The translations under genes and the position numbers were made by a program. A stretch of 64,000 nucleotides of DNA, from NCBI RefSeq assembly GCF_024521635.1, contig NW_026250409.1, positions 992,001 through 1,056,000 on the forward strand, written 5' to 3'. The DNA comes from Tricharina praecox. Taxonomy: Eukaryota. The stretch's first letter is position 1, and every line of letters begins with the position of its first letter. The notes beneath the pieces are model-generated. The model was not told where the DNA came from. It made no database searches and saw only the letters and a list, made by a program, of their open reading frames with translations. Below are positions 3,036 to 26,300 of this stretch, in pieces.

Positions 3036-4284
3036 CTATTTCCGCTTAATCTTAGCCCCGCCAAACACATCATCCCTATCCCTGATTTCCTGCTGGGTCT
3101 TTTGCTTTTTCGCGCGGCGCTCCTCGTCCGCCGCGTCCCGCGTCGCCGCGTGCTTGCCCTTCGCCGCATTGAGCGGTTTCTTGAGCAGGAACAGCTTCTT
3201 GTCGATACCGATCGTCTGGGGAGTGTTAGGTTAGCGCAGCCAGCGGCGGGGGGTGGGGGGTGTGTGTGTGTAAACCAACCTCCTTCTTAAGGTCCGGGGA
3301 AATCTCCGCCGGGCTGAGCGGCACGCCATTCTGCGGCAGACGCAACAGCAGACCCGGATAAGTTGCTGGACTATCCTTCGTGGCCATGAGATGGCACTCC
3401 GCGCACTCCCTGATCACCTTCAGCAGCTTTGGCCGCACCGCGTCGCTGCCAAACTTCACGCGCAGGAAGAACTCGACCAGCTCCGCGTCGTGCGCCCACA
3501 CCGCTGCCAGCGCTATCTGCGGCGGCGGGTATAGGAAGTACACGTCCGTCAGCAGCGCGGTGCCGGTGAGCAGGGAGCGTGCCCGCGCGCATGCCCGCTC
3601 GGACCGCTCGCGGGTGCCGCCTATCTTCTCGAAGCTTTTTTGGAGGGGTGGGCCCTCTGGCCCGCCGGTGGCGGCGGGGGAGCGGTATAGTCCCGAAGCG
3701 ATCGATAGGAGCTCCGCTTTGAGACCCTCGACGGAGCGGAAGGGGTGCAGCACTTGGAAGGACCAGCGGAGGTTCATGGCGATGTCGATTTCGGGCTGCA
3801 GCAGCTCTTCCTTGGTGATGCTGAGGCCGACGGCTTCGGCCGTGCGGATGAACCACGACGTGCTCTGGATCCCCTGCTCGGCTTTGTACGCGAGGAAGAG
3901 GATGGGCAGCAGCAGCGTCTTGGGGTGGATCTGCAGCGGCGAGATGCGCAGGTATATGCGCTGGAGGTAGGCCACGCAGGTAGCCTTCACTGCTGAGCCA
4001 GTGCGGAAGTGGTCGCACAACTGGACGCAGGTGGTGAGGTAGTAGGAGACGAGTTTCAGCTCTTCGCGGGCGGTGAGGGCGGCGGTGCTCGAGGTGTTGG
4101 AGGTGGCGGACGAGCTGCCATCCGACGGCGGCGTCAGGTCGCCCGCTTGCACCGCGGACTGAATCGAGTCGTGTAGCCGCTGCGTCGCGACGGTGTTGGT
4201 CGACGAGCGGATCTGGGAGAGCACCGCAGGCGTGAACGTGAAGTGCCGGTACTGCGTCGATTGAAGGTACGCGCTGTCTTCCAT
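3036..4284 (-). CDS. CCL1: Cyclin H (TFIIK/CAK cyclin, Ccl1/Mcs2-like), 1 intron near the 3' end
   Basis: N-terminal YLQSTQYRHFTFT; cyclin box EELKLVSYY...VKATCVAYLQRIYL...LFLAYKAE; HPFR and TDVYFLYPPPQIALAA motifs. Intron ~3217-3279 leads to a terminal exon ending KIKRK*. Confidence 0.88.
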
Positions 4285-5392
4285 CGTGTTTGCGTGGCCG
4301 TGGTTGGTGCGGTGGCGATGCGTGGGAAGGAGTGGATGCTGCGTCCATTGCGAGCATCGAGTTCTGGGAGACGCGATTGCGGTTAGGGTTTGTGATGCAG
4401 TGCATGGGGTCGCTCGAATGCCGCTAAGATGACGCCAATAAGCCGAGCTTGAGTTTACTCATCATTTGGAAACTCGCAAACCATTCCATTTGATGCTTGA
4501 GGACCCCGATTTTGCCATGATCTAGACGGGTCGCATGCAATCAATAAAAAAAGGTTGAATTTACTCTACTTAATGTTGTGATTATGAGTGATCGCAAATG
4601 GGGAATGTATCCCCACATACATAAACCGCCAGTTGTATCCAAGTGACCTGCGTAAGGGCTTATTGATCCTCGATAGGTACCTGCGCTGTCTACTTCCCCG
4701 CCTTGGAAAACCGAATATTCTTGGAAAGAAAACACGATAACCATCTACTATCTAATCGCCTAGAGCTCATAGCGCCTCAAGGCTCACGCGAAGGTTTAGC
4801 GCTCCGTTTAGAGAACTTCCGCATCATAGTCTATGATTCGATAAACGGCTCTAGAGTCCGGAGCATGTTGCGATTCTCGTTCTCGTTGAAAAGCCACCGT
4901 CGTCACTCGTCCAAGATTTTGCACATTTTTCATATTGGTAATACCTATTTGCACGTCTCGAGTGCGCCTCGAGTGCGCCTCGAGAATCCTGTTGATTCTC
5001 ATACCTGCTTCTGCTTCTGTCTGGTAGGTATGTCTAGCTGGTCATCCGCTGTGTTTTGCGGATGAATCAAGCAACTGAATGATATCATACTCATATTTTC
5101 AACGGGAGCATCCACTGACTCCTGAAGTCCGCCATACGGCGGGCTGAATAGCCAGAGGAATGGGCCATACATCTGGAGCTGGGCTTCTATTGAATATCTC
5201 TCAAGGACGTTGAGGGCAGATCCAAGCTGGCGACGTCCAACCTCTCATGGAAACATAGCTGAACGGTACGGGAATGCCAACTGGCAACTGGGTAGGTAGG
5301 TTGGATGCGATTGTAATTTCCGTATCATTGCACGTAAATATCAAAGTCAGAAGCAGGTATTATAGAGCACAAGTGCCTTCCATCCTTCCATC

Positions 5393-5510: not shown

Positions 5511-7079
5511 CTAATAACTCTCAAAAACCCTCGTAGTGCTAGTATTGACCCTGCTCCACCTCTTGCCCGTCGCGAGACTAGTCACAAACATCCACGGATA
5601 GTAGACATGATACAGCCACCACCACGGACACGGATCATCGATACGGAACGTAGCGTCGTTCCACGCCAGCGCCCTCACCGCGAACCAAAAGATAGTTTTG
5701 GCGACGTCCACGGGGCCAGATCTGGCCGCGAGCAGACTCAGGATCGGAAGGAAGAAGCCCGTGATCAGGTCGTGGCCGAGCCAATAGAAGTGCGTTTTCG
5801 AGGAGGCAGGACAGCCATCGGCGTTGGTGTCCGGCTGCATCACCGTCGAGATGTCGGTGTCATCCTCCGGGAGTTGTCCGTTGAGACGGCCGTTGGTCTT
5901 GCTGGTGGGCAGGCCGGGCTCATCCAGGAGGGTTAGGTATGTGGCCGCCAGGTGTTTCGGCTTGGTGGCGAGGAGGATTACCGCTGTGTGCGTTCGCGGG
6001 TTGCACTCGATCGGGAAGAGCTCGATATCCTGCGCTGCCTTCCCGTGGGCGTTTCTGGCGTCCACAAGGAAGTCGAATGAGAGTTGACCGGTGATGTTAC
6101 CGCCCTCGAGGGTCCTTGCGAGGCGTCGAGTGAAAGCGAGCATCGCGCGGGACAAAGGCGAGGAGACAGACAGCGCCGAGTAGTGCATCAACATCTCACT
6201 GCTGGGACAGGCGACGAATGCCTTCACCTTGCCGCGGACGACGACGGCATGTGTGCAGAATTCCTTGCCGCGGACGAATTGCTGGACGACCCAACGCTTC
6301 TGGGGGGATATGTCGAGACTGTGCACGAACTTCTCTGTCTCCAGCGGCGTAGGCTGCGGGAGCTTCGTCATGTCGGCGCGGGAAACGTCGTCGAGCTCGA
6401 CGCATTTGACGATGAAAGTGAGGTCCGGGTGGTCGAGGAGGACACCGAACACCTCATCTTGGGACTCGACGAGCACCGTGACTGGCGTGGTCAGTCCGGC
6501 ATCCTGGACACTCTGTATGAAGCGGTACTTGTCGTGCAGGATTTCACACGTCTTTGGATCCGGCTGGAAGACTTTGCAGTTGGTCTCCTTCTCGATCACG
6601 GCCTTAAGCAGCGCATCTTCGATAGTCGACGCAACACCGCTCACAGGAAGCCAAAGGTCCACGCCTTGGGATTTGACGAGCCTGACCATCTCCTCCGAGT
6701 ACTTCGCTCGCGACGCCCGGTCGTGCGGCGTGGTGACGGTGAAGTATTTGTCTAACGACTGCGAGAACCGTCCCGAGCTGGGAACGGGCGAATGGGCGTA
6801 ATGTGCAGTATCGAAATCAACACCGATCACGCGGTGGCCGGCCTGGTGGAATGCTCGAGCAAGTGCGAGGCCCTTCCCCATCGCCACTGCCGTAACCATA
6901 ACCGTCCGCTGCGGTCTGGCGGTGCTGCGGATGGTGGGGGCACGCCGGAGACCCTGGATTATCTGCCATAGCAGGCATCCGGCGACGACGAGCGTGTCCA
7001 ACGGGAGGAATATTAGGCTGAGGAGGACCAGGGAGACATTCTTGAAGACGTGTTCTCTGAAGGATACAGGTTCTGGCAT
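5511..7079 (-). CDS. mysC: ATP-grasp ligase of mycosporine biosynthesis (MysC-like), intronless
   Basis: Hydrophobic N-terminus (LVLLSLIFLPLD); MGKGLALARAFHQAGHRVI; LHDKYRF; QQFVRGKEFCTH; GQLSFDF; PIECNPRTHTA; DPCPWWWLYHVYYP. First in-frame ATG is at 7079. Confidence 0.9.
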   Translation of the reverse strand: MPEPVSFREHVFKNVSLVLLSLIFLPLDTLVVAGCLLWQIIQGLRRAPTIRSTARPQRTVMVTAVAMGKGLALARAFHQAGHRVIGVDFDTAHYAHSPVPSSGRFSQSLDKYFTVTTPHDRASRAKYSEEMVRLVKSQGVDLWLPVSGVASTIEDALLKAVIEKETNCKVFQPDPKTCEILHDKYRFIQSVQDAGLTTPVTVLVESQDEVFGVLLDHPDLTFIVKCVELDDVSRADMTKLPQPTPLETEKFVHSLDISPQKRWVVQQFVRGKEFCTHAVVVRGKVKAFVACPSSEMLMHYSALSVSSPLSRAMLAFTRRLARTLEGGNITGQLSFDFLVDARNAHGKAAQDIELFPIECNPRTHTAVILLATKPKHLAATYLTLLDEPGLPTSKTNGRLNGQLPEDDTDISTVMQPDTNADGCPASSKTHFYWLGHDLITGFFLPILSLLAARSGPVDVAKTIFWFAVRALAWNDATFRIDDPCPWWWLYHVYYPWMFVTSLATGKRWSRVNTSTTRVFESY

Positions 7080-8291
7080 TGCTTGGATCGGTCGTTCGGT
7101 CGTTTGGTCGTCGTCGTCGTTGCGGAGTGAAGTCAATGTCTAGGTCCTGAGAGGGCGATGGGCAAAGGAGTAAACGCCGTATTTCAACAAGTCTATGACG
7201 CAATGACATTCTGCACTTGGAGCAAACATTCTAAAATGCACGCGGATCGTCGTTACACCCGACGTGATATCCGGGAGTGGTTCACATGTACCCATTCGAT
7301 AGTTTAGAAAACCCAATCTGTATGTACCTTATCAAGCTCCACAACTTCGATCGATATCAGGGCATATCCATCCGACGATTTTCTCCGATGATCAGACAGG
7401 GAGCATCTGCAGTTGTTTTTCGTATTCTGGGTAACTCCAGCTGCAATTGTATGATTATGCAGGGTGCCGGAGGGACATATGGTGTATGGGAATGTACTAG
7501 CATGTGGGAAGATGCGCAGGTGGGTTCATGGCTCGAATGCCGAAGTTGTGGGGTGAATGCAGAAATATTGTATCACGGTGACTTGGGAAGCTTCGGTAGA
7601 AGGAGCATGAGGATTTGTAGTTCAAGTAACCTACATTCAAGTAGTACATGATTCCGGAGAACTGGTGACCAGCGTTTTGTTCATCAATTATCACGTCGGG
7701 TCATGGTGCTCTCTCGTAGGAATCCGTCGCAGAAGGAGCGAGTACCTAGATCATAACTCGAGAAGGACAATCAGGTCGTCTCGAATCCGGCTCCGAGTGT
7801 CGCCTTGTCAAAATTCAAGATTTTCCGGATGGGTACTTTTTTTGTTTCGATTATCATAGAATTGGACCTTAGTAGATAGATCATGGCTGAGTTATGTACA
7901 TTTCCGGTTCCAACCCGCCGTCTCCAACCACTGGCCGTGAGCTCGACTTGAGCTCCCTATTGCTCTCCGTCTAGCCCTTCTAGATGAGTACGAAACAACC
8001 ATAGGCACGGTTATGTGAGAAAAGAAAACCGAGTTTGGGATCATGAAGTAATCGGGCCAAGATCACGAGGTATCACGAAGCGTCACGTAAGCAAGCATTC
8101 TCATTCCCGGCGTCACAAACAAAACGACCCAACTTTCTCCCAGGCAGTACATGATACCGTTTGTATCCGATCAACAAGTAAGCCAACCCCACACAAAATC
8201 AACGAGAAAAAACAACAACATAGAAAGGCTTTTCAATCCCCTCTCTGCCGCAGAAAATGATTCATATCGTACATCACTCGCACGAAACAAC

Positions 8292-9685
8292 CTATTTGAT
8301 CTCCCTCTGGATCTCGTTGTTCAACGCCGCCATCGCGACATCAGCGTTGAACCCACCGACGTTACGTCCGTGAATGGCATCCTTCTCTTCGGACTCCATG
8401 AAGACGCCGGTGTCGCTCGAATCGACGTATGCGTCGACGCCGGCACCCTCGCGCGGGTACTTCTTGCAGAACTCCCGGTGCATGTGCAGAGCCTTGTTCA
8501 TGTCGTTGGCCGTGCAGTCGTTCAGGAACACGCACTTGCCGATGGGGCTTGGGATGGCGGCGCGGAGAAGACCGTCCCGAGTCTTCAGGATCGCGTTGGT
8601 GCCCTTGGCGATTAAGGCCTCGTCGAACAGGGGGTGGTTCATCGTTAATCCTGCCCGCGAGAAGAGGTTGAGGATGCGGCGGTGGGCATCTGCGTCGATG
8701 ATTCCTTTGGAGAGGGCGAGCGTCGCCGAGTATGCCATGTCGACCGAAATGGCGTGGCCGTGGCGGAGGGGGGTCTTGGGCGCCAGCTCGAGGGTTGGCG
8801 ACCAGGTGTGGCCGTACGCGATGACACGGTCGAGGGCAAGCTCGTGGAGATTGGGGACCTCGAGTTTGAGCATGACGTGGATGCCGCGACGGTTGATCTC
8901 GTCAGCAGCGGCCTTGAGTTCCGGGGAACTGCCGTCGGCGCGGCCGAACTTCATCGAGATGAGCTGCTCGCAATACTTGTCGAGCAAATCGAACGTTTGG
9001 AGGTCGGCACAGGTGGAAATCTTGATGAGCTCGGCGAAGCCATTGCGGACCTGAGCTTCGGGAAGGGTACGCAGGAATGTGAAGTCTAAGAAGGTATACA
9101 TGGGAGCGTGGTAGGCACCAAGACGGTTCTTGTGCTTGCCCTGGTTGACGGCAACCTTGATGGAGACCGAAGCGTCAATGAGGCCGATGACGGTCGTGGG
9201 AATGCGGATGTAGTTAGTGCTGCGACGGTAAGTAGCACACGCAAACCTACAACCCAACGTTAGCAACATACATCCTGAACGATTATTGTGTACAGTGTCA
9301 TGACATACCCGGCGACGTCAGTGATGAGCCCACCGCCGACCACGAGAACCGGCTCGGTGCGGATGATTCCGAATTCAGTCATGGTCTCGCAGATGGCGAG
9401 CAAAGTCTCCATCGTCTTGGATTCTTCGCCGATCCTGGTGCGGTGGATCTGGAGTTTGATGCCGTAGTGCTCGAAGTACGCATGCATCTGCTCGCCGTAT
9501 AGGGCATACACGTTGGTGTCGGCGATGGCCAGGCAGCGCCCCCACTTCTTATACATATCAGCCAGCTGAGAATTCTTAAGGTCGAAGACTCCATCAAGGA
9601 ACATGAAGCCGTAGGAGATACGCTCGACACCATCGACCTGGAAGCCAGTGGGAGTCTCGGCGACGGTAGCCTTGAGGTCGGACAT
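8292..9685 (-). CDS. mysA: Desmethyl-4-deoxygadusol synthase (sugar-phosphate cyclase, MysA-like), 1 intron
   Basis: MSDLKATV start; VGGGLITDVAG|FACATYRR; PTTVIGLIDASVSIKVAVN; KNRLGAYHAP; DDGS-type MLKLEVPNLHELALDRVIAYGHTWSP; LRHGHAI; KTRDG. GT-AG intron ~9248-9308. Confidence 0.95.
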
Positions 9686-11484
9686 TGCTTCGAAATGCTC
9701 TGCACAACTAGGGGAAAACGAGGAGGGGCTATGGAGGAGAAGATGGGAAACGAGGGGAAAAACACTAGGTGCTGGGAAACGGGAGAGAGAAGGAAGACTG
9801 TAAGGGGAACTCTGAAGCTGGATGAGCAGATCGAGAGCCTAGTGTCGGAAAGTGGTTGAACAACAGTGAAGAGCAGCAGTAGTAGCGATGGAAGGCTCAC
9901 TATATATTCCGTCGGATCTCTAGATGTAAGCAACGTCGGATGATTCTACCTAGGTTGTTTGGTCAGACCCGGATGTCGAACGAGAAATGCTCTCCACTCT
10001 GTTGGAGTGGGACTCACTGGGCTGGGATGGTTGGCGCATGTGCACGTTTCATCTCTCCGGACGGAAAGACTATATCTAAAGTGCGTCGGTTCCTCCGGCT
10101 GTCAGCCCAGATCTGACAATGGATAGAAATCCTCCAAGCGCAAGTAAGCGGGCTCGGGGGACGCGAGCATGAAGCCCGTACCCGTGGGTAGCAGCTCCAT
10201 TTGGGTTCGAGTGATCTCGTGTGGTTTATGCTTCGGGACAAGCACGAACCACAACCACCCATCGACAAGGAGGGGTGGAGGTGGAGAATTGTATAGAGGA
10301 AACGAGAGCACGTTCTCTTGTACCGTCGCATCTGTCTCAGAAGGCCGAACATGCCTGCTACAGCAGCCATCTGTGGGGGAGTCGGGACCCTGAAAGTACC
10401 CATACATATGGCCCAATGGTATTTGTAACCAGATTGGCGAGCGAGCTAGCAGCGTAGGTTTATCGAGATCCGGCCACGATCCGAGCGGCGGGAAGACTTG
10501 CAGGGGGATGTGCTCGGCAGCTATATTTAGAGTAGAGCTAGGTAGTTATCCTCGATTCCTGCGGATTTTGAATTTTGAAGAGTGCGTCACCTCCTAGAAC
10601 TCGGAGATATTGGTGCCCTACTCTAGGTTGTGCCCTACTTGCTCGTATGCACTGAGTTTGTCGGCTGGATACATTGATATTCTATGCACACGCTCCCGAA
10701 TACCTACAATAGACATACACGCGCTGGTTGGCTACTACTACCGGTAGTAGATGAGGCGGTTTATGGCCTCGTAGTCTTCTTCTCTGGAAGCATCATGTGG
10801 CCATCACCAGAAAGGAAGGATGTCGTGGTTTAAACTTCATCCAGCGTAGAATGGCGAGATCCAGTTAACCCAGAAATCAGGCAATCGATCGTAAGTGAAT
10901 GAGCTTGGCTTGCTAGCTAGCTGTAGCACGAAATGGTCGGGCAATTGCACCTCGAACTCGACGCTGCAGTCCGCCGAGAGATATACCCTCGTCGCGGAAG
11001 TGCAGTAGTATTTCGGGGGAGGGGGAGTCTCGATCGCGGTAAATTTCCTCCCCGAACCATAAACCAACAAAGAGGCCGAGTGGAATTGAAGGACCTATAT
11101 GGCGATCTTGTTCGTGCAAGCACCCGTTTAGCCCCTCAGATTGATGATAAACTACACGGAAGGAGACACATGCGTACAATTAACCCACCCCCATTGAAGG
11201 CAAGGCCCAGCCAAGCTTTCCGCTGACCAAGGAAAATCTTCCAAGTAGAACGTGATATCATAGAAGGGAAGGGAGGGGTTACGATAGCCTTCTGTTCTGT
11301 GTCCGTCTTCGGATCCGTGTTCTGGAGCAGAAGAGTCGCACCACCACTACATACACTCCATTCTCGCTCTCGCTTTTGATCTTTTGATCTCGCGGCTGCA
11401 ACAGTAACAGTAACATCAACTACCGCTTCCACGTATTCCAACAGCCATAGACACAAAGTATCACCACCAGCAGTGCACAGCAAA

Positions 11485-12457
11485 ATGGTCGGATCAGGCT
11501 TCACCTCCGCGCACCGCTACGGCCATCAAGGCGACGTCTACGTACCGTCCCCTCGTCCATCAATCCCCGTTCCCCCCACTAACAACCCGCATAGTTCAAC
11601 GACGGCCGCGAGCTACAACTGCTCAACCACATATTCAGCCTGCCACCGGCACGGCTCGACGCGCTCCGTGGCAACCCCACGAGCATCCTGCAAGAGATCG
11701 ACCAGTTCGCGACAAAGACGTACCTGATGAACGTCGGCGAGCTGAAGGGCTCGCACGTCACGTCGCTGATCGCCGAGGTGGCGCCGCGGGTCTGTGTCGA
11801 GCTCGGCGGGTACGTCGGGTACTCGGCGATCCTGTTTGGCGATGCCGTCAAGAAAGCTGCCGGAGAGGGTGCGAAGTACTACTGCCTCGAGTATAACCCC
11901 ACGTTTGCCGCTGTCATCATGGCCTTGATTGGGCTGGCTGGGTTGGCGAATGTCGTCAAGGTTTACCCCCAGCTGCGCCCACCCCACGAGCCCGGCTGAC
12001 GCATGGGGGGATGGGATAGGTCGTGATCGGCCCGTCGACGACGTCGCTGGTGCGTCTGCACGCGGAGGGCGCGCTCGGCGCGGGCATCGACTTTATGTTT
12101 CTGGACCACCTGAAGCCCTTGTACACGCCGGATCTGAAGCTGTGCGAGTCGCTCGGGCTGATCCACGAGGGCACGGTGCTGGCGGCGGACAACATGGTCA
12201 AGCCCGGAAACCCGCCGTACCATGAGTATGTCAACCTCAGCGCCAAGGACAAGATGCTGCTGGCGGAGGGGAAGACTGGGTCCGAGAGGGGTGACCCCGG
12301 GCTGGTCTATGAGAATCAGTGGATCGAGAGCTGGGAGCCGCAGGCTGTTAGGGTATGAAACCCCCCATATTCTACCTCGACGGCAAGGAAAGTGGTGCTG
12401 ATGAGAAATAATTAGGATGCCCTGGAGATTTCGAGGTGCAAAAAGGCCGAGCTTTAG
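11485..12457 (+). CDS. mysB: Catechol-type SAM-dependent O-methyltransferase (MysB equivalent), 3 introns
   Basis: YLMNVGELKG, VELGGYVGYSAI, FMFLDHLKPLYTPDLKLCE, LAADNMVKPGNPPY motifs. Divergent from DDGS. Confidence 0.88.
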
Positions 12458-12845
12458 TTGGTGGCGTGAATGAAACATGAGGGTATTTGTTCGTAGACTG
12501 GTTTGCTTGCTGCTTGTATTTACTGTGCTCTACTGTGCTCCACAAATCTAGAAAAAACGGGTTTACAGAATTGAAGGAATTTGGTGCTCTACATAGATCA
12601 GTATCTTTGCTCAGGATTATGAGGTTGGATATTTTGATATTGGGACACAGAACTCACCTTTTAGATTGTAGTTTTTCTAGCCAAAGAGAACGGTCACTGG
12701 TCAATGAGTGAGCTTTTAGTGGATACATCACGCGGATGTAGTCAAGAGGATGGAAAAAGTGCCACAGACAATAAAGGTAACAGAAATCCATTGTATCAAA
12801 ATATATGCAAGCACCGTTCAGCACGGTTCAATACAATACAAGCGG

Positions 12846-14688
12846 CTACTCCCCGGACACGGGCCTGAGACAAAGCTCCCTCCCATTCATTACCTGCCAA
12901 GCACACAGTCCCCTCTGCAGTCCCATCCCAACCAAGCTCGCTATCGTCACAGAAGCCACGTCTGGCGGCGCCACCGCACTCAGCAAAAACTCACGGAGCG
13001 CCATGTCCTCAGTAGCACTCCTCTCCCGCAGTGTTGGGGCAATGTCATCTAGGAGTCTAATCCCCTCTTCCCCTTGCGTCACTGCCACCCCCGCCCGAAC
13101 CCGTGCAGCGTCAAGTGCTTTGTACACTGCGGGTGGAAGGGGGAGTTTCATTACTTTCCAGTAGGTGTTGCAAAAGACTATACCAGCGGAAGCACCGCCG
13201 AGGAAAGTGAGGAGGAGGACGCCGGCAGGGCCGTAGAGGGTGGTGGTTAGGGATGAGGTCATGGAGACGCTGTTGGCGCCCTGGATGGCCAGGACGAGGC
13301 CTTCAACGACTGTTAGAGTCCAATAGCATGCCGTGGAGCGGGTCTTTCCGCCTGGCAGGGGGGAAAATATGATGGAGCAGCGGCCGATGAGGTTGGCAGC
13401 TTGGTTTACTGTCAACTGGAGTGGAGAGGGTCAGGAAGAGATAGACTTTGCAAGAGGGAGGGACAAACATAGAAGGGATAGAATTCCCGACTCTCGGTGA
13501 AGATTCGGTTGAAGAATTTGGCAAAACGAAACGAATGGAGGTCGAGCGGAAGGTAGTAGAGTAAGGTTGGAAATATGCCCTTTCAGGTCAGTCCAAGCTC
13601 GGAGCCGTCAGCACAGACAAATTGAAACGAACCTGGGTAGTGCAATGCTCCAGGAAGAATATCGTGGCGAGAGGAAGCATGTACGGAACAAACATCGGCC
13701 TGATGATCCTAAGTTTGTCTTTCCATGGCAACTGGACAATCCCCTCCTTCTCCTGATCCTTGATGTTCGGAAGCATCACGTCGTCCTCCGGATCCGGAAG
13801 AATAAACGCATAACACAGCCCACCGAGGACGGGTGCAACACCAACAATCGACAGTGCCCAACCATAGTTCCATTGCATCCATGAAGTCACGAACGTATAA
13901 TAAGATGCGCCGATTACCGCTGCGGTGCCACTCCCAGTGGTATAGCCGAAGAAAGCCCACTTGGACGCCTTCGGATATCGAGCACAGAGCATCTGGAATG
14001 ACCTGAGTCCGCGTTATCTCTCCCTACCCGCCTGGAGTGGGGAGCGAAGGGGTGGGCGTAACCCACATGTCACCAAGATTCGAACTCAAGGCTGCCAACA
14101 TAATGCCAAGAACCCTGGTGGGGATATTCGAGAATATTGATAGCAACTGTAACCCAAGGAACGAGGAAACCGCGCATACGAGGAGCCGCAACGGGTAGTT
14201 TACCTCCCTCGACAGCGATATGGTGGCCGAAAATTCTCGAGACGCGAAGTCGGAGGGGTCTCGACCTATAAGACGGGAGATGAACCGAATATTATCGAAA
14301 TCTCGAAAACTCGAGAGAGGAACTATAACCCGTGTGAGAATCGATGGAACGCTGTAAGCGAAGAGCACCAGGCCCATCGGGGCTCTGCCTCCCACAAGGC
14401 TTCAACCGGGTAAGTTAGCGTTTTTTTTGCAGTGGGGATTCGGGAGCAAGCCGCGAAGTCGTTTGGGGTGGGATATTAAGCAAAACCTACTCGTTCGCGG
14501 CTGTAATGATAGTGCTTCCAGTTGGGACACATCGAGTCAGTAAATAAAGTAGAATAACTTCCTAGGATTGAGGCGGCGACCCGTTCGAACGTAGTCATTC
14601 CCTCCAGAACCCACCTGTACTGCATGGTGATCAGGGTTTCCATCAAATAGATGCTGAGCAACAGCCTGAACTTGGTGGTGGTTCGCAT
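12846..14688 (-). CDS. Divergent CLN3/battenin (Btn1)-family multi-pass membrane protein
   Basis: Multi-exon hydrophobic ORFs with LAALSSNLGDM, GYTTGSGTAAVIGA, FVPYMLPLATIFFLEHCTTQ, LLLTFLGGASAG and REFLLSAV, resembling CLN3-family segments. Exon limits approximate. Confidence 0.7.
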
Positions 14689-15582
14689 TTTCGACTGCAG
14701 AGCTTTGTTTCCGCGTAGGATACGTGAAACGACTCCAACGAGGCTCCCAATCTTTCAAGAGGTCCGATACCGAGAGGAGCCGGGAGCCGGATGCTATGGT
14801 GTTATGGTGCTATAGTAGTAGAGCAACACTCCACTGTGGTTGGAAGCGTATGATTCGGAAAAATAAGAAGCGGGTGGGACAGAACAGGAGCACCAGGCAG
14901 AGGTGTCGAGTGGTAGCCGTCAAGAAGTTGGTAACGCTGCTGGCCAGGATACTTATGGAAAGACAACGGTGGCAGGCGGGTTCTGTGCTCAAGCTCTGCC
15001 TGAAGCATCGGCTGGCAGCGGTGAAGATGGAGCGGCATGAAACTTAGAAGTGTGGGGGCACAGCCTACGCTGGGCAGAGTCTCGGTGCGTGTAAGAGACC
15101 AAGAGTCGAGAGTCTGAATAGGCCTCTACGATGAGTGATGTATGTGTGGGATAGTTGCGTGTCAATGCCCCATTCAAGTCTAGCCTATGCCAATCGACAC
15201 GGGTTTTGGTTTGTTTAATCATCATTGAATCTGACCTTAATAGAGCATGGCAGATACTTCAATCGAGTCTCGACACGGAGTACTCTACTAGTTACCAAGT
15301 ATGCCCGCCACAGCGGCACGGCAAGGCACTGAGTGCGAACAGCGAAGATATCCTACGTCGATCGTCCATCAACACGGCAGGGCTGCGAAGTGGCGACGGG
15401 AAGCATGCAGGCGCACTGTCACCCGCTGCCTTGGTTTTCATGGGCCAAACGGCGCTTTTATTGCTGCCAAATTCTATGAAACGCTATTCCCGCATTTGCG
15501 ATCGATTCATCCCTCCGCGAGCCATGCAAAACAAAATGACACAAGACCTGCCTCCATTGCAAACGTTCTCCCAGCTCCGCTG

Positions 15583-16553
15583 CTATGGACAGTCGGTGTT
15601 TTGGGGCACGAGAGCACCGTCGACTCCCAAGTCCATCGAATCCAGCAACTTCATGTCTGACGCATCGAGCTCGAAGGAATACGCCCCCGCATTCTCTCGG
15701 ATGCGTTGAGGATTGTCGCTCTTCGGCAAAGGGATGAACCCGTGTTGCAGACACCAGCGAATGAGTATCTGGCTCGGAGTAGCCGTTGAGTGCCGGGCGG
15801 CGATGCCGAGGATGGTGGGGTTCTTCATGAGAGTGCCGCGGACCAGAGGACAGTATGCTTCCACCTGGATCGCATTCTTCCGGCAGTACTCCACAATCGG
15901 CCGCTGTTGGCACAGAACGTGGCACTGGGATACAACCTTTGGTTATCCTGCTGATCTCTCTTGAACAGGAGAGTGCTCACCTCGATTTGATTCGCAACAG
16001 GCGGGAATGTCGCATAACTCTTCATCTCCTCGAGGTGTTTGACCCCGCTGCAATGCACCATCAGCAACGAGTTGGACGCTCAGCAAATGGTTACACACTA
16101 ATTGCTCACGCCGATAGCCCTCGTGCCACCCTCTTCGAGCAGATTCTCCAGGGCCAGCCACATCTCCCGACGTCCCTCGGGTCCACTGCTGGGAGTATGT
16201 ATCAAGAAGAGATCGACATATCCCAGACCGATCTCGCGAACGCTTCGCCAACATCTCTCGAGTGTCTTCTCCACACTTCCTTCCGGCAGCAGCAGCTTTG
16301 TCGTGATGAACACCTCGCTCCGAAGAATGCCCGACTCGCGCACGGCTTCTCCGACTTCTTTTTCGTTCTCATAGAACTGCGCTGTGTCGATGGCGCGATA
16401 TCCGCAGCGTAGTGCCTCTAAGCACGATTTTTTGCAGATGTCCGGGGGAGATTGGTACACCCCGAATCCAATACGTGGTCGTAGGATTGTCCCCCTGGAG
16501 TGGGGAATCTCGACGGTCGACTGGAGCGTCAAACGCTGCTCTGGGGCGGCCAT
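15583..16553 (-). CDS. Aldo-keto reductase (2,5-DKG-reductase-like), 2 introns
   Basis: IGFGVYQ; GYRAIDTAQFYENE (catalytic D, Y); FITTKL (K); DLFLIHTP (H); RAIGVSN; PVANQIE; QILIRWCLQHGFIPLPKS. Confidence 0.92.
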
Positions 16554-16680
16554 TTGATACTGGTACTGAGGCTTTAGGAGAGGACAAACAGTGGGGCGTT
16601 GGGCATCGAGGGTCTTATGGGGGATGTAGCCATAAGCCAAAAGAAAGGTGATCGGCCCATTCTAGGTTATTTTTCTTTGT

Positions 16681-16698
16681 ATCCGATTCCAATCGGAT
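16681..16698. promoter_or_regulatory. Palindrome ATCCGATT-CC-AATCGGAT in the AKR/NRPS-like bidirectional promoter
   Basis: Perfect 8-bp inverted repeat with a 2-bp spacer. Its regulatory role is inferred. Confidence 0.4.
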
Positions 16699-17016
16699 CG
16701 GCGGACGAGGTTGGGGTGGGGACTTGCTGATATGTCTATCCGGCCGCACATATACAGGATACAGCACTCGATCGGCATACGCTGGGTATCCGTAACCCTG
16801 AAGATAGCGTCCTTCTCTTGTTGCCGAATCACAAGATTGGAGATTTTCTACCCTAATCTTTAGGAAACCTTATGTATTCGCTTTCATAGGCTTCTCTTCC
16901 CCCAGAAGAAAACTTTACGGAAGTTGCTCAAATCTCACAGTGAAGTACTGCAAGCTTTCAGTTTATAATATCGAGATGAACAGGATGTCTGTCTTTGATT
17001 CTATCTTCAATCAAGG

Positions 17017-20000
17017 ATGCAGTCTCAGATCCCGCACTTTTTCGTTGCTACTCTCGGGGATGCCCAGCGTATCAATGCTCGCACTCCTCATGGTATCACT
17101 ACTATCAACGAACTCCTCATTCGCCGAGCTAGAGATACTCCTGATGCAGTGGCCGTAGGGATGGCGATCCCACCCCAAGGCGGGAGCGAAGACGACGGGA
17201 GATGGGGAAGCATAGTTTACAGTCGGTCTCCTTGGATCCCAAGCATATGTGGAAGCAGTTGCTGATGCGGATATACCGTAGCGTATTCGCAACTTTTGAA
17301 AAGCACAACCGCCGCGGCTCACCGGCTCTCTGCCCTATTGCCGCCGGCAAAGAAGATTCCTGGCTCAAATGATGGTCCCACGGTTGCGATCCTGTCGGAG
17401 AGCTCATGGGATATGCTCATGTGCTTCTTTGGGCTGATCAGGATGGGATACACGGTTTTACTGATAGCGTGAGTTCATACCTTCGTATGAGTCCGTCTAC
17501 TGGCGCTGACAATGCAAAGCCCCCAATGTGACGCCCGGGCAATCCAGCACCTGGTCAAAAGCACTTCCTCAAAACTCCTTCTACACTCTCCCCCCCTGGC
17601 CGAGCTCGCATTCTCCGCGGCCCCGTGGTGCAAATACAGTGCCCTTCCCGCATACGAAAACGAAGATGCCCACTTCTCACATGACTGGTGGCCCACCCCA
17701 TCATTCGTCGATTCATCGACCGTGGCATATATTCATCACACTTCCGGAACAACCGGACTGCCCTCTCCAATCCCACAGAAACATGCCACTGCAACAGTCC
17801 ATCTGCCCTGCCTCCCTCCGCGAACAGCTATCTCGATGCTGACAATGACACCGTTGTATCATGCCGGCGTGGCGGACATGATGCGGTCGATGATGTCTTC
17901 TTCCATGATATGGCTGTTTCCTCCCACGGTCCCCATCACTAGTGGGAATATTCTCCGTGCAATCGACACGGCCGATTTGCGGCTTCCTGAATCTCCTGTT
18001 AATCTCTTTACTGCCGTGCCATACATTCAGAAAATGTGTCTGGAAGATCCAGCATGCTTGGCCGCGTTGCAGGAGATGGATATGGTTGGATACGGTGGTG
18101 CACAGCTCCCGGATCATGTTGGAGATGCACTAGTTGAGAACGGTGTGAATCTTGTCAGCAGGTTCGGTAGCACCGAATGCGGATGTATGTATGCCAGCCC
18201 TGTTACGCGTTGCTGTCGATTATGGGGGCTGAAATTGTCAGTCTTGATGAGCTCCTACCGCGATTTCGAAAACGACAAAGAATGGGAATATTTGAGAGTA
18301 TCCGCCGATTCGAAGAATCTCGTATTTGAGCTACGGGAGGATGGTGCTCGAGAGCTCGTCGTGAAACCTGGCTGGCCACATATGGTTCGTTCGCCTCAAC
18401 ACCGCGCCCTTGGCCTCTGTACCTATCTCACTCGTTTCCCAGGCAAAAACAAATCGTCCCGACGGTTCATTCGCGACCTCGGATCTTTTCCGCCCCCATC
18501 GCACCATCCCCCGGTTATATAAGTACCTTACACGCAGCGACTCGACGCTCGTCCTGCTGAACGGCAAAAAGTTCGATCCCACGCAGATCGAAGACGGCCT
18601 TCGGCGACTCGATATCGTCGAGGAGGCAATAGTCTTCGGTCAAAACAAGGAGTCGCCAGGTGTCTTAATCTTTCCCGCCCGCCCACATGTCGATGTGAAC
18701 AGCTTGATGCATAGCCTAGAAGGAATCAACTCGATGGTGCCGGCGTATGCTCGCATTCCGCCGGAGTTGGTGGTCGACATCGAATATGGCAGGGAGTGGC
18801 CGAGGAGTAGCAAAGGCCTTGCGCTGAGGAATCAGGCGGAGGAGGTCTTCCGGAAGGAGATCGAGGATGCGAGGAAGCGGTACGAGGGCGGTGATGTTGG
18901 CGTTGATGTTGGCGATACTAATCAAAATCCCACAAAGTTGGATGTAGGTGAGCTGGAATGGGTCGTGGCGCAGGTTGTAGAGGCAGTTGTGGGCAGAAAA
19001 CTTGGGAACGATGAGGACTTCTTTATGAGTGGAGTGGACTCTATAATGGCCACCAGAATTCGAAGATTGCTCATGAATAAACTTAAAAAGCCGCTCCCTA
19101 CAAATGTGGTCTTTGAACAGCGTACAATCAAGGGGTTTGATATTCTCCGTGTGTCTGATTTGGTTGGTGCTAACTCATTGCAGTCTCGTTTACTTTATAT
19201 CTACCGCCGCAGAAGTCGATATGGAAAAGAAGCATGAGCTACATGTCATGCAAGAGATGCTGAATAAATTCGCTGCGGAACCCAAGCCACCGGTTGTGGT
19301 AAGTTTTTCGCACATCTAAGCGCAGGCCTTATTCTGATAATCAATAGCTCCTGACAGGTGCTACGGGAGCCCTTGGTGCTCACATACTGCATGTCCTCGT
19401 TCAACTCCAGATTCCCAAGATAATCTGTTTGTGCCGCGCCTCCTCCTCGACGGTGGCCAAAGACCGACTCTTTGCCAGCCTCTACCAGCGTAAGATCCCC
19501 ATTGCCTGGTCCCGCGACACCGACGTCCGTGTCAGCAACGCCATCCTCTCAGAGCCTATGCTCGGTCTACAAGAGGACGTTTACACCGAGCTAGCCTCTG
19601 AGGTAACGGTAATCATCCACGCCGCCTGGCCCGTCAACTTCCTCGCGCCTCTCCCCTCCTTCGACTCCGCGCTCGCAGGCACAAAGAACCTCCTGCAGCT
19701 AGCAAATACCGGCGGCACCAAGAAGCGCATGGTATTCTGCTCGTCCACCGCATCCGTAATCCGGGCTCCCGCCCCAATCCGCGAAGAGCCCTCCTACGAT
19801 CCCTCGCACGCCTCGCCGCTCGGCTACAGCCGCTCGAAGTGGGTTGCGGAGGGGCTCGTCAGCCGTGGCGGCGGCGAGGTGGTCCGGCTCGGCCAGCTCT
19901 CGGGCGATACCCAAGCCGGCGTGTGGAACCCGGAGGAGGGATGGCCGCTGCTGCTGAAAACACTCGATCTCGTCCACTGCCTGCCGGAGTTGAGGGAGCA

Positions 20001-20491
20001 GGTGCAGTGGCTGCCAATTGATATTGCCGCCGATGCGGTCGTGAGAATCGCGCTTCGCCAGGGAGTCTACGAGGAGAAGAGGTTCTGGCATGTGCTCAAT
20101 AATAGGCCGTTGCCGTGGAGCACAGTGCTGCGCGCCATGGAGTTCTGGCGTGGTCAGGTTACCAAAGCTACGCCACAGGAGTGGGTAAGAAGGCTGGAGG
20201 TTTCCGAGAAGAACGGGGAAACAGTGAAGCTTTTGGGGTTGTGGAAAGATACGGTAACGCCCGTCCCTACTAATCCATCGAGATCAAGCTTGGAAGACTG
20301 ACTGATGTTGTTCTTCTCAGTATGGAGCGGTAAATGGAGGGAAAGCGGCGGCGGTGGTGAAAGAGCCCGTCTTTGAAGTCAAGAATATGGGCAGCCTGTT
20401 CCCCGGGTTTGTAAATGGCGTCGAGATCGACCAGGAATACATTCATACGGTTTTTAGAGCGCTGGGGATTGAGGGCAGATTGCCAAACTAG
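17017..20491 (+). CDS. NRPS-like A-T-R enzyme (carboxylic acid reductase type), multi-exon
   Basis: A domain YIHHTSGTTGLP, TPLYHAG, SRFGSTECG, FATSDLF, LVLLNGKK; T domain DFFMSGVDSI (Ppant Ser); R domain LLTGATGALG, IIHAAWPVNF, FCSSTAS, GYSRSKW, RLGQLSGD. No C domain. Confidence 0.92.
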
Positions 20492-21317
20492 GTAGAAGGA
20501 GAAGCCGAGTGGTGTTTCATGTATGATACATGGAATATTCTGTTTTCTTTGAGTGGATCTGGAAATGTAGAGTAGAGTAGAGTAAATTTGTAGAATACTC
20601 ATTGCGAATTTGGAATGCTGATGTTCGACTTAGGAGTGACGGAGAGAGGAGATGTCCCATGATGGGTGACTTGCTTGGAAATGTATATCTACGACCATAT
20701 GGAATTTAGCGGCCAATAGGTGGTGGAATGGTGATTGCACACACCCTAAACCCTAGGCCCTGGACACTCCCTGCATGCTGCGTCTTGACGTCGATAGGTA
20801 TCGCTCCCCATGGTTGTAGTACAATACTCTGGAATGTGCGCTGGCCAGTGGCCGATCACCGCAGGTCCGCAGTCCGTGTTTTGATTCGTACCGCCTGCTT
20901 TTCGGTCCACCAATGGATGTTGCGGCCTCGACCCAACATCATGCCCGTCGACCGGGCAGCCACAAACGGGCTAGGAGAGGGCGGCATGCCCCAGGTTTCA
21001 CCCTCGCTTTCGGCAGCCTAAATGTAGGATTGCGGGGGCTATGAGTCGGAGCTGCTGAGGGCGCCTACCACCCATGGGCGCAGCTCTGCGAACGGCGAAG
21101 ACCCCGGTGGTGGTGTAGAAGGGATTATTTAAGACGGCTGCGGCCTGCGGGGCCTTTCTCGCCATTAACTACACCCAGCTGTCTCGTAACCTCGTCGACG
21201 CCAGAAAGCTCTACACAATACCGTATATATCTGCTCTCCGTACTGTGGCTCGTAAGTTCGGATCACTTCCTCGGGCTTAGGCGATTGACAGCTGAAGATG
21301 ATGGTGGTGTCAAGGTC

Positions 21318-21979
21318 ATGAGGCGACCTGTAGCTGCCGTTGAATCCATCCCCGATTTCCAGCCCAGCTCGGAGGTATGTACCTATGTACACAACACCTG
21401 TCCGCATCCACACATTGTCACTTTTCCGCCACTGATCTCTCCAAGAAAGGCGATTTCGAATCCGGCACCAGTACCTACAGCATCGACGAGCCGTGCACCC
21501 GGCTGCAACGGCAGTACATGGCGGTCATCAAGACGATATGCACACTTTTCGACCGATGCTCCGACAAGCTAGGCTCTACCACGGCGTCCCTGGGGAGCGT
21601 AGAGGATTACGAGCTAGCGATCATAAAAGAAGCGGCCGAGGTCAAAGAGCAGTTCACAGAGCTGATCGACGACTTTATACGCATATCGATGGGCACGCAG
21701 AACAGCGCCCCCGACGCTTTCCGTCTGTTGATGGCGCGATTGCGGCATGGAATGTTGAAGGCTGTTACGGCGCTGGTTCAGACGCTGCGTGGGTATTTGG
21801 AGGCGCTGGCGGGCGCGGTTAGGAATCTCGCTGCCACGGTGAGACCGTTGCTCGAGGAGATAAAGGTCAGAGCCAAGTGTGCGGCGGCGAAGGCGCTGGC
21901 TTATGTTACGGGGAGCTCGGAAGGCGGGTCGAGGATCGTTAAGGATATTTTGGCGAAAATGGCGACGCTGTCGACTTGA
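21318..21979 (+). CDS. Hypothetical helical protein, at least 1 intron
   Basis: GT-AG intron at ~21375-21445 joins MRRPVAAVE...SSE to a ~180 aa Ala/Leu-rich amphipathic ORF. No motif recognised; start uncertain. Confidence 0.55.
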
Positions 21980-22555
21980 TGTGAAGGGAGCGCGGGCTTG
22001 TATAGTTGCATTATGTAGGTACTGAGAGGCCCTCAATGGGTACGAGCAAATGTAGAATGTGATTCAGTCGAAACAGGACATTGATTACTCCGAGTGATAT
22101 TCCGCCCCAAAAATTCCCGGCGACAGCGAAGCACATTACTTGTCACGAGTTGTGCAGCAAGTGTAGCCAGTTGGTGGCTATTGCGGTTTTCTCGGCCGTG
22201 CCAAATGGTCGAAATGACGTCCGACGATCGAGGGTAAATCCACACGCCCACGACCAACGGATACCGTACCTACACATCCCTCATCCGGGGCGTATGATTG
22301 TCTTCCGATTCTTCGGAATAAGAAGAGCAGATTTAACGAGGCAACTCCAGTACATAGCCAGATGGAGGCGAAGCGATTCCACTAACCTCTAGGGCCGGAC
22401 TAAAACTAGTGGACCTCGCTACTGATCCGTCTGGTTTCATAGACTCCCTCACCGGTAGACTGTAGCACGGTGGCTTCACCTATACCAGTCAATGGCACAA
22501 TCACATGAAACAAAAACCATATAAAGAGCGCTAATAGCGGAATTGTTTCAACACA

Positions 22556-23368: not shown

Positions 23369-26300
23369 CTAATTGTACTTGCAAGTAATAGTGATACCCT
23401 TCTTCTTGTCATCGGCGTCAATGGGAACATCGATAAACGTAGCCCTGATGGAGGTGTCGTTGGACACGGTGGAGCCAGTAGCGCCATCGGTGGTAGTGAC
23501 GCACTTCGTCGTGTCGACGTCGACCTCGTGCCAGATAATGACGGTGTACTGCTGGCCAATATCGCGCTTGAGTAAGTCGAGATTGTAATTGTCCCAGGCG
23601 GTGCGAATGGTGACGGTGCGAGTGGCGCCAGCGGTTCTCTTTTCGGTGTTAGTGGTAGGGAAGGATGGCATGAGGGGAGGGAACTTGCCTGGGCGATGAT
23701 CACCTCGCGGTATTCGCTCTTGGCCTCTTCATCCTCGTCGATGGCGAAATCGTCCTTCGGAATCACTCCCAGCTCGGGGTGCATAGGCACGGGGTTGGCT
23801 GAGTACTGCGGCAGTCCGGCCGGAGCGCTGGCACGGCTGATTCCATCGTCCAGGTACATGTGGTAGTCCTGCGAGAGCGGGCTGTCAGCGAAAGAGCACA
23901 TCGAGTAATGCGATGGATTTCTGGTTGGCTTACGCTGTTCTTGCCTGGATACACGTGCAGGGTGATGGGGTTCGCTTTGCGGTTCTCCAAGTCGGGAATC
24001 CACTGTCGGAGCTCAATCTGCGGAATGATTGCACCTGAATGTTTCCCGGTGAGTTATTACCTGAAGATATTGCGTTGATGATTGCGGGTACCCACCTTCC
24101 CTGATAAACATCGGCATCACGTATGGGATGTGCTCGTTATCGCCAAGTCTGATCTCGTCATCCCACTCCATGAAGGTTCCACCCTGGAGCTTTGCGCTCA
24201 GCCCCTTCCTCCGGCTAATCTTGAGACCGTCTCCATTCGGATCCTCGATGTGGTCGGGACGCAAGTTGAACACGAACCAGTTGTCGGGCTGGGGTAAGTA
24301 CAGCTGGTGCTTCTGCTTCGTCTCATTTTCCCCTACCTTGAGCTTCTCCGGGTACAGCCTCGGGCAGACTAGCAGGTCGTTGCGGACCATGTATTCGCGG
24401 TAAAGGTAGTTCGAGGCGTCTTTGTACAGACTGTCATCGTAGACGTCGGTCAAGATCTTCATCGCGGTCAGATGTGACTCCGATTGCAGTCGAATGGGGT
24501 ATAGCTTACCAAGGCTCTGGCAATGGGCATTCCAGTGATCTGGTTCTCGAACATGGCGTCGTAGAGGAGCTGCAAGAGGGTGTATCGAAGCTCTACAAAG
24601 TATTTGCACACAGGCTCTACCGAAAGGTACATCCTCTCGTCTTTCTTGAGTATATCATGCCATTGTGGGTTCCAGAAATGGTCCGTGTAAACGTAGGGTT
24701 CCTAAGGAATTTAGCTGGCAACCCACAGGAAAAACGCACAAAAAATTGGTTTACCTGGAAGAACTTCATGCCTGGTTTGCCGTGGTAGTGGTTTCTGTAG
24801 GCCTGTCAGTGTCTTTCCCCGATGGATGGTTGGGCTGAGTGATGGACTCACCGGAACCATGGAAGCATGGAGTAAGCACAGTACCAACGGATCACCAGCT
24901 CCGGGTCGGCCCACTGATCTTTGTTCAACGGCATGAAACCGCCCACATCAGCGCCTGTGATGACGCCTCCAGACAAACCGGATGCGAGAATCTGCGCAAC
25001 CGAGATCCGCAGGAAGTTCCAAGTGGAAGCGTTATCGCCGGTCCATAGACCAGCATATCTGTGCATGCCGGCGAAACTTCCACGCCCAATGATGAAGTTT
25101 CTTTTGCCTTTGCGAAGGTCCATGTCGTTCAGACCCTTGTATGTAGCCTTGTGAAGGTTGTAGCTGAAGAGTGACCACATTTCGATGGCTGCCTTATAGG
25201 GAGGGTATTTGCCGTCTTGGCTAGGGTAAACGTCGGTGCTGACCATCAGCCGGAAAGGAAGTCTGGAGACTGTCAAATGTGGATGCTCAGTGAATGGACT
25301 AGGGGAATATGTTCATACCCTTTCATGTCGCCGTATTCCTTAGCAAGGCAAGGGCTCGTCATGTCCTGCCAGATAAACTCAAGTCCTTGTTCTATGAGAT
25401 ATCGGTATTGCTCTCCCCACCATTTCCGTACAACTTCTCGGTTGAGATCGGGATAGAAGCCAGGCTAGGATTAAAGTCAGATCGTTAAAAAAGTCCCTCC
25501 CTGGGTGCATTGCTGGAGCAGGTTACGAACTGTTCCCAAGTCTTGACCGTAAGAGACACCGCCAATGAACTCCTTCTCCGAGTTGTATGCCTTGCTGAAG
25601 TCACTTCTAGTTATTAGTAATTGGCACTCGGTGGCAAAGATTTTGAGGGACTCACTACTCGGGAGTATAACCGGGCATCCTTTTTTGGGCGCTCTGAATA
25701 TCAGTGATCATCTCGCGCCTGCCGCCATCATAGTACATGTACTTTGCATCCCAGCTGTTTTTCCCTATGCCATCGGCGGTGTAGCGCTTGTCCATAATGA
25801 AATACCTAAGCAATGTCAGACATCTCATTGTAGAGTTTTGGGGGGTGGGATTCTTACTTGTTCTTCACCCCTTCGGAAAGGGTCTTGTAGCCATCGCCAG
25901 TGCAGTTGATGACAGGAGTGATATTCGTGCAAGCTTTGACGCCCATATTGCGCAGATCCCGAAACATCGCTTTCGGGTCAGGAAACTTGTCCGGAGCTGT
26001 GTTTATCGTGAATGTACGATATCGGTCCTGCAAGTCGACGTCGATATGCATTCCGTCGAGAGGAATCTTGCGGGCGCGATACTGATCCACTATACCGACT
26101 ACCTTTTTCTGAGTATCATAGCCATAACCTAGTAGATGGTTTCCGACTCAGTGTCAGCAAGCCACATCGTCTTGGTAGTCTGTGGGAGTGATGGATTGGT
26201 TATAGTACTTACATCCTTGATGGTGCCCTAGGACGTATCTAGGCTTCAGTCTGTTACGACCGATGATTGAGGTGTAGAGGTTTATGATATCGGGGATGTC

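Follow-up and report, generated by a model that had tools for sequence, protein, structure and literature searches.

Knowledge of fungal mycosporines with glutaminol, glutamicol or serinol side chains, and of their glucosides, dates from the 1970s–80s. Desmethyl-4-deoxygadusol synthase (DDGS) and an O-methyltransferase (O-MT) convert sedoheptulose-7-phosphate to 4-deoxygadusol, to which an ATP-grasp ligase then adds an amino acid, in this fungal family Gln, Glu or Ser. Which enzymes turn the acid into the alcohol? A locus of Tricharina praecox raises this question directly. In a stretch of 64,000 nucleotides (contig NW_026250409.1, positions 992,001 to 1,056,000; the whole stretch is called the window below), genes for the three core enzymes stand in one row with genes for a CLN3-like membrane protein, an aldo-keto reductase (AKR) and an adenylation–thiolation–reductase (A-T-R) enzyme. 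From sequence comparison we conclude, with a probability of about 0.6, that the locus represents a mycosporine cluster of fungal type with an additional reductive module, in which the A-T-R enzyme would reduce the mycosporine-amino acid.

We searched the six-frame open reading frames (ORFs) of the window against Pfam, NCBIfam and solved structures, and refined the gene models by tblastn with orthologues, by the splice joints of RNA-type contigs and by introns of the GT..AG type that keep the frame. All six genes that an earlier interpretation of the letters (the sequence-only reading) had named were found within 5511-20491, and both of these coordinates are the ends of the outermost gene models. 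As judged from the Pfam scans and the gene models, the six genes are intact, none of the models has an internal stop, and no other recognisable gene lies in between. The six-gene row was thus borne out, with one correction to its layout. The O-MT gene had been described as following DDGS; it lies instead on the plus strand and diverges from DDGS over a spacer of 1.8 kb (9686-11484, read from the sequence), which forms a shared promoter region. The window is fungal in character, with short GT..AG introns and a G+C content of ~54%, and the best homologues of A-T-R, DDGS and AKR belong to Pezizales, Pyronemataceae included (Sphaerosporella, Wilcoxina, Trichophaea, Pyronema). At 90% identity, the DDGS fragment of the window falls into one cluster with a protein of Tricharina praecox.

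The gene on which the conclusion depends most, at 17017-20491 on the plus strand (8 exons, 1027 aa), encodes a predicted A-T-R carboxylic acid reductase that resembles nonribosomal peptide synthetases (NRPS-like). Its plus-strand ORFs (17491-20298) match the Pfam families AMP-binding (E = 6e-17), AMP-binding_C_3 (1e-25), PP-binding (4.8e-9) and NAD_binding_4 (5e-34). The model was aided by tblastn with the Sphaerosporella orthologue, and after splicing it keeps all of the motifs sought: SGTTG, PLYH, GSTE, SDL, RSD, SSKG, GVDS, TGATGALG and YSRSK. The ANL core motifs of the adenylation (A) domain are present, including the A10 lysine. The carrier motif GVDS lies at residue 597, and its Ser is kept in 10 out of 10 aligned sequences that reach this region. 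The reductase (R) domain carries the NADPH motif TGATGALG and the Tyr-Lys pair (YSRSK); it matches TIGR01746 at 9e-51, which is under the 213-bit cut-off of that model, and among solved structures it resembles most the thioester reductases 8aep (2.9e-27) and MxaA (4u7w, 1.5e-24). No gene for a phosphopantetheinyl transferase was seen in the window.

We analysed the A domain for the kind of acid that it may activate. It scores higher on the acyl-CoA-ligase models of NCBIfam than on the amino-acid adenylation models, and its best match in the Protein Data Bank (PDB), DltA, reaches an E value of only 1e-4; it resembles the standard amino-acid A domains only remotely. In the alignment with DltA, His stands where amino-acid-activating domains have the Asp that holds the alpha-amino group (D235 of PheA, in the FDxS motif), and the same is seen in 12 out of 12 aligned members of the A-T-R family. 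Because His replaces the alpha-amino-binding Asp, the predicted adenylation domain is not of the alpha-amino-acid type. With His at this site, the likelier substrate would also be an N-substituted acid, such as a mycosporine-amino acid, rather than a free amino acid. The alignment, made at the level of motifs, comprises the window enzyme, those of five other loci and six named proteins; the blocks HHTSGT, TTTPLYHGGIAD, SRFGSAECGF and KSSKGT are near-identical across all of them, and by these motifs the DDGS-linked A-T-R enzymes are one family.

To what extent does this family accompany DDGS elsewhere? With a DDGS exon we retrieved 80 metagenome loci, searched them by tblastn with the exons of the window, and examined the 35 that are at least 6 kb long; merging of near-identical loci left 15 distinct fungal arrangements with usable flanks. 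In 7 of these 15, DDGS has an A-T-R gene of this family no more than 10 kb away, and Pfam confirms the domains in the A-T-R-linked loci. Two arrangements repeat the six genes of the window without any change of order: L001/L002 (DDGS identity 89%), where the flanking cyclin gene is also kept, and L003/L004 (84%). The gene order of the others varies. L005 (76%) has A-T-R, a glycosyltransferase of family 8 (GT8), ATP-grasp, O-MT and DDGS; L006/7/21 (73%) has ATP-grasp, O-MT, DDGS and A-T-R; L060/61 (79%) and L019 (67%) both have O-MT, DDGS and A-T-R; and L077 (71%) has ATP-grasp, DDGS and A-T-R. In four arrangements (L006, L019, L061 and L077) A-T-R directly adjoins DDGS, and these direct pairs differ in order and orientation. 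The sequence-only reading had proposed a survey of the synteny around DDGS, and for A-T-R a conserved linkage indeed recurs; for AKR and the CLN3-like gene it is confined, among these fungal loci, to L001–L004.

Two further observations bear on the linkage. In Sphaerosporella, A-T-R and DDGS were found on contigs of equal size (194,730 bp), and the same is true of Decorospora (302,325 bp). In L005, where DDGS shares 89.5% identity with its Lachnellula counterpart, the GT8 gene (3356-4399, plus strand) is placed between A-T-R and the ATP-grasp gene. Its product is a candidate mycosporine glucosyltransferase, and its position inside the cluster fits a cluster for a mycosporine amino-alcohol glucoside. 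Five loci of bacterial type (DDGS identity 57-60%) contain DDGS and an ATP-grasp gene without A-T-R.

The reactions of the extended cluster may then be as follows. The A-T-R enzyme would adenylate the free alpha-carboxylate of the mycosporine-amino acid and transfer the acyl group onto its own phosphopantetheine arm, from which it would be released reductively, at the expense of NADPH, as an aldehyde. The aldehyde could be reduced to the alcohol by the neighbouring AKR, by any general aldehyde reductase, or by a second turnover of the R domain. The end products would be mycosporine-glutaminol, -glutamicol or -serinol, and the CLN3-like protein might, as a guess, move or store the product.

The core of this route is provided by three genes. 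The DDGS gene occupies 8292-9685 on the minus strand (2 exons, 8292-9246 and 9309-9685; 443 aa), and Pfam DHQ_synthase and DHQS_C match its minus-strand ORFs 8295-9317 and 9263-9838. Among solved chains, 5tpr comes nearest (E = 3e-108, 365 bits), as compared with 4p53 (1e-49), while chains of dehydroquinate synthase (DHQS) match at 1e-25 or more weakly. We take 5tpr to be the DDGS of Anabaena and 4p53 to be ValA, a synthase of 2-epi-5-epi-valiolone (EEVS), the PDB names themselves being generic. The predicted protein is thus a sugar-phosphate cyclase nearer to DDGS than to EEVS or DHQS. Its identity to fungal proteins is 65-89%, and 65-71% to those named demethyl-4-deoxygadusol synthase. Among the homologues there is also a 'TPA_exp' DDGS record of Ascochyta fabae, which may be merely the outgroup sequence of the Phaffia paper discussed below.

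The O-MT gene (11485-12358, plus strand; 3 exons, 11485-11541, 11595-11960 and 12020-12358; 253 aa) is recognised less readily. One exon matches Methyltransf_24 and Methyltransf_3 weakly, at E values of 1.5e-3 and 6.6e-3, under the Pfam cut-off. Two segments of the protein align with the unspliced O-MT of L019 at 55% and 43% identity, and this L019 protein itself matches Methyltransf_3 at 6e-12. The gene beside DDGS, by these comparisons, is one for an O-methyltransferase of the Methyltransf_3/24 type that depends on S-adenosylmethionine, similar to MysB.

For the ATP-grasp ligase (5511-7079, minus strand; 1 exon, 522 aa), the sole Pfam match of the ORF (5514-7139, minus strand) is a weak one to ATP-grasp_3 (E = 0.11). 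The NCBIfam model PRK06849, which we assume covers MysC, matches at 1.6e-57, a score under the 406-bit cut-off of that model, and at E = 0.01 the protein has no sequence match to solved structures. An AlphaFold model built on an alignment of 15 sequences has a mean pLDDT of 81.6, and every PDB match that Foldseek listed for it is an enzyme of the ATP-grasp fold (biotin carboxylase, PurK, carbamoyl-phosphate synthetase and L-amino-acid ligases). The modelled ligase is thus an ATP-grasp enzyme of the MysC type. Its homologue adjoins DDGS in most of the long loci, both fungal and bacterial-type. The model also has one long N-terminal helix of ~39 residues (7-45) ahead of the catalytic fold; it appears hydrophobic in translation, which hints at a possible membrane anchor.

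We looked for transcripts of the locus in two public runs from two studies (X1 and X2). These runs are not recorded as RNA, and we treated them as such since their contigs skip GT..AG introns. The RNA-type contigs cover all six genes, with the exception of one AKR bin in X2. Six GT..AG joints of A-T-R are present in contigs of both runs, and the CLN3-like gene has five joints that read CT..AC on the plus strand, as expected of sense transcripts from the minus strand. An unspliced contig spans 5527-7117, in the ATP-grasp gene. Three soil metatranscriptome runs contained next to no words of the stretch. Just past A-T-R, the same contigs revealed a small spliced gene on the plus strand (~20600-22100; GT..AG introns 21252-21314 and 21373-21443), for which Pfam gave only a faint hint (HAP, E = 0.019). 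Its contig depth rises to 2441 in X1 and 703 in X2, as compared with ~5-25 in most bins of the six cluster genes, though contig depth cannot rank genes and carries no meaning for co-expression.

The two remaining genes of the row encode the CLN3-like protein and the AKR. The former, a putative membrane protein of the battenin family (12846-14688, minus strand; 6 exons, 493 aa), matches Pfam CLN3 on minus-strand ORFs 12849-13430, 13591-14013 and 14027-14401. When the CLN3 profile is scored exon by exon it gives 44.8, 38.0 and 21.9 bits (E = 1.2e-11, 1.4e-9 and 1.1e-4), of which two pass the cut-off of 31, and a crude hydropathy scan reveals six strongly hydrophobic segments. The AKR gene (15583-16553, minus strand; 3 exons, 15583-15924, 15981-16047 and 16099-16553; 287 aa) matches Aldo_ket_red on minus-strand ORFs 15586-15942 and 16101-16661, with 3o0k as the best PDB match (6e-27). 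The Asp-Tyr-Lys-His tetrad is recognisable, as DTAQFY, TTKL and LIHTP (residues 56-117 of the spliced model) align with the motifs of 3o0k. A further AKR, a fragment 49% identical to that of the window and convergent with a DDGS-like fragment (44%), occurs on a 1.2-kb contig of high GC (L080, 1-1212); it looks bacterial and was not used.

Several observations weigh against a cluster extended by a reductive module, and we consider them here and in the next three paragraphs together with the alternatives. The first concerns DDGS itself. The only joint listed inside this gene, present in both runs, skips 9227-9294 (68 bases) and is of the GT..AG type on the plus strand, i.e. antisense, which suggests that a spliced RNA runs antisense across all of the DDGS coding sequence; the intron expected in the sense direction, 9247-9308, preserves the conserved GFACATYRR stretch. 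The second comes from Phaffia rhodozyma. As far as the available part of the report goes, this organism has a three-gene cluster (DDGS, OMT, ATPG), fungal clusters are said to be without further enzymes, the three core genes in S. cerevisiae gave a peak called mycosporine-glutaminol (MG), and the core genes restored MG and its glucoside (MGG) in a strain without a 26.3-kb region (PMC10057719). For that basidiomycete, at least, the result argues against a linked reductase being strictly required. In the accessible sections the products are identified by co-migration in high-performance liquid chromatography, and the words 'mass spectrometry' occur nowhere in the main text as available (PMC10057719).

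The AKR part of the explanation is open to doubt. Proteins 55-60% identical to it are found in Aspergillus, Exophiala, Penicillium and many other ascomycete genera, and one homologue is annotated after C2F3.05c of S. pombe, so that the AKR seems to belong to a general family of reductases. This spread over ascomycete moulds makes a dedicated role in the cluster weaker; the AKR may be a general enzyme that merely happens to be located here. Among the fungal loci, homologues of AKR and of the CLN3-like gene are present only in L001–L004, and the remaining five arrangements with a linked A-T-R (L005, L006, L019, L061 and L077) have neither; L006 has, ~3 kb from the cluster, a Zn-dependent alcohol dehydrogenase and no AKR. 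MxaA, the second-best solved relative of the R domain, is presumably a four-electron thioester reductase that takes the aldehyde on to the alcohol. It is therefore conceivable that A-T-R belongs to the pathway while AKR and the CLN3-like protein are bystanders in Pyronemataceae, with the R domain performing both reductions or housekeeping reductases finishing the job. We regard this as unlikely, though a serious contender, because AKR and A-T-R diverge from a common spacer of 463 bp (16554-17016, by the start codons placed in the gene models), and the pairing over this spacer is kept in L001–L004 though DDGS identity drops to 84% and that of the A-domain exon to 65%. In addition, the AKR contig is equal in size to that of A-T-R in Wilcoxina (318,820 bp) and to that of DDGS in Trichophaea (152,194 bp). 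The sequence-only reading had let A-T-R and AKR together supply the steps from acid to aldehyde to alcohol. Its A-T-R half holds up well, given at least seven linked arrangements of varied order, intact motifs and an A domain apparently not made for amino acids, and the A-T-R assignment is probably the strong part of the whole explanation. Its AKR half is plausible but weak: the tetrad is intact and the spacer is shared, but the linkage is seen only in close relatives and the family is widespread. The linkage of AKR and the CLN3-like gene thus appears to be specific to the Pyronemataceae lineage, and their roles are much less certain than that of A-T-R.

It is also possible to view A-T-R, AKR and the CLN3-like protein as servants of another pathway, whose proximity to the core genes is just inherited gene order. 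In 8 of the 15 arrangements (L011, L015/16, L044, L050, L053, L054/56, L059 and L072) A-T-R is absent from the available flanks, and in three of these (L015/16, L054/56 and L072) it is absent despite 10 kb on each side. In two Pleosporales, Neocucurbitaria sp. VM-36 and N. cava, the nearest A-T-R is, by locus tags, 25 and 159 genes away from DDGS. No 8-, 9- or 10-mer is common to all four upstream regions; five 7-mers are, against 1.07 expected from shuffles, which we judged too weak for use. Furthermore, a cyclin gene (Cyclin_C_2), presumably without a role in the pathway, recurs close to the mycosporine cluster in three arrangements that are otherwise unlike one another: the window (3229-4458, minus strand) with L001/2 (L001, 14057-15058), L015/16 (L015, 3428-4060) and L054/56 (L054, 17955-18566). 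Conserved neighbourhood alone is thus no proof of function; the recurrent cyclin may reflect an old conserved gene order or a regulatory link. Inherited order is nevertheless an improbable explanation for A-T-R, which is directly adjacent to DDGS in the four arrangements of differing order and orientation, is separated from the ATP-grasp gene in L005 by an embedded GT8 gene, and has exactly the chemistry that the pathway needs. Moreover, A-T-R genes are sparse in fungal genomes, with few of them per tens of Mb, and we roughly estimate the likelihood of a chance placement within 10 kb at ~1% or less.

The order of ligation and reduction can be considered separately, since gene content alone is compatible with either. 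Free alpha-amino aldehydes are unstable, which counts against a route that reduces the amino acid first. Another guide is the genus Pyronema, which we take to belong to the same family as the window fungus. According to those parts of a review that were available, Pyronema omphalodes yields mycosporine-serine, -glutamine, -glutamicol and -glutaminol glucoside (PMC4665425). Acid and alcohol forms thus coexist in Pyronema, which favours ligation before reduction, and this is also the order that the features of the predicted A-T-R protein lead us to favour. The opposite order, where A-T-R and AKR would turn free Gln, Glu or Ser into an amino alcohol for the ATP-grasp ligase to attach to 4-deoxygadusol, is highly improbable, as, in spite of the statement of the Phaffia authors, in the accessible part of their paper, that the ligase incorporates glutaminol (PMC10057719), the alpha-amino-binding position holds His and not Asp in every aligned family member, acyl-CoA-ligase models match the A domain better, and mycosporine-glutamine and -serine are metabolites of Pyronema (PMC4665425).

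Returning to the extended cluster, we give a somewhat better than even chance to a broader proposal. The conserved A-T-R family of Pezizomycotina, marked by HHTSGT, TTPLYHGG, SRFGSAECGF and KSSKGT, would be the missing mycosporine-amino acid reductase and the first NRPS-like carboxylic acid reductase that acts on a cyclohexenone-N-linked amino acid, and the clusters would be modular, built of a three-gene core, the reductase and lineage extras. Such extras would be AKR and a CLN3-like transporter in Pyronemataceae, the GT8 glucosyltransferase in Helotiales-like fungi, and the Zn-dependent alcohol dehydrogenase elsewhere. The cluster-linked, conserved A-T-R offers a concrete candidate for the alcohol-forming step, with AKR, GT8 and the transporter as candidate accessory genes. 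If this is true, reduced mycosporines, which attract interest as natural UV filters, could be produced in defined form, and the carboxylic acid reductases of biocatalysis would gain a new substrate class.

Elsewhere in the window, a gene for a glycoside hydrolase of family 31 (GH31; 24016-27499, minus strand) lies a few kb from a gene for an aldos-2-ulose dehydratase (AUDH; 30547-33508, plus strand), which has AUDH beta-propeller and cupin domains with E values down to 2.5e-44. The pair recalls what we take to be the fungal anhydrofructose pathway, in which a GH31 alpha-1,4-glucan lyase works with AUDH. At 43210-44586 on the plus strand, an ORF of 459 aa has a weak match to an integrase zinc-binding domain (H2C2, E = 5.9e-5) and is possibly the remnant of a retroelement.

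A full-text search, outside which most subscription journals lie, found no paper that assigns an A-T-R enzyme, a carboxylic acid reductase, a thioester reductase or an AKR to fungal mycosporine biosynthesis. We therefore compared the predicted enzyme and its cluster with the known systems nearest to them. Carboxylic acid reductases and thioester-reductase domains (8aep; MxaA, 4u7w; carboxylic acid reductase, 5mso/5msp) share with the window enzyme the A-T-R architecture, the pantetheine Ser, the TGxxGxxG motif and the S/T-Y-K residues. The bacterial carboxylic acid reductases are more distant, since the R domain matches them at just 2.5e-6 to 1.5e-4, and the window family has its own strongly conserved set of motifs. 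To our knowledge, no characterised carboxylic acid reductase accepts an N-(cyclohexenone) amino acid.

Closer in gene content are the 'myc' families of Hypoxylaceae, in which, in the available part of the report, automated comparison grouped NRPS-like core genes with mycosporine-like clusters (PMC8403587). The physical association has thus been seen before in another fungal order. The available part of that paper does not say which reaction the NRPS-like enzyme carries out, leaves the products unidentified, and has a cluster for bacterial mycosporine-like amino acids as its reference (PMC8403587). The Phaffia cluster, reported in 2023 and the only fungal mycosporine pathway with a genetic study that our search brought up, resembles that of the window in its three core enzymes, in the divergent arrangement of DDGS and O-MT (over a spacer of 1568 bp there and 1.8 kb here), and in its products, oxo-mycosporines with a reduced side chain. 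It consists of three genes only, with the origin of the alcohol unassigned, whereas the window adds A-T-R, AKR and the CLN3-like gene. The cyanobacterial mys clusters with MysE, an enzyme of adenylation, thiolation and thioesterase domains, are alike in that a core cluster is joined by a single-module NRPS-like enzyme acting on a mycosporine intermediate, as described for the work of Balskus and Walsh (2010) in the part of the paper available (PMC10666671). MysE, according to the same excerpt, has a thioesterase at its end and forms an imino-mycosporine by adding a second amino acid (PMC10666671), whereas the window enzyme ends in a reductase and would instead remove oxygen from the side-chain carboxylate.

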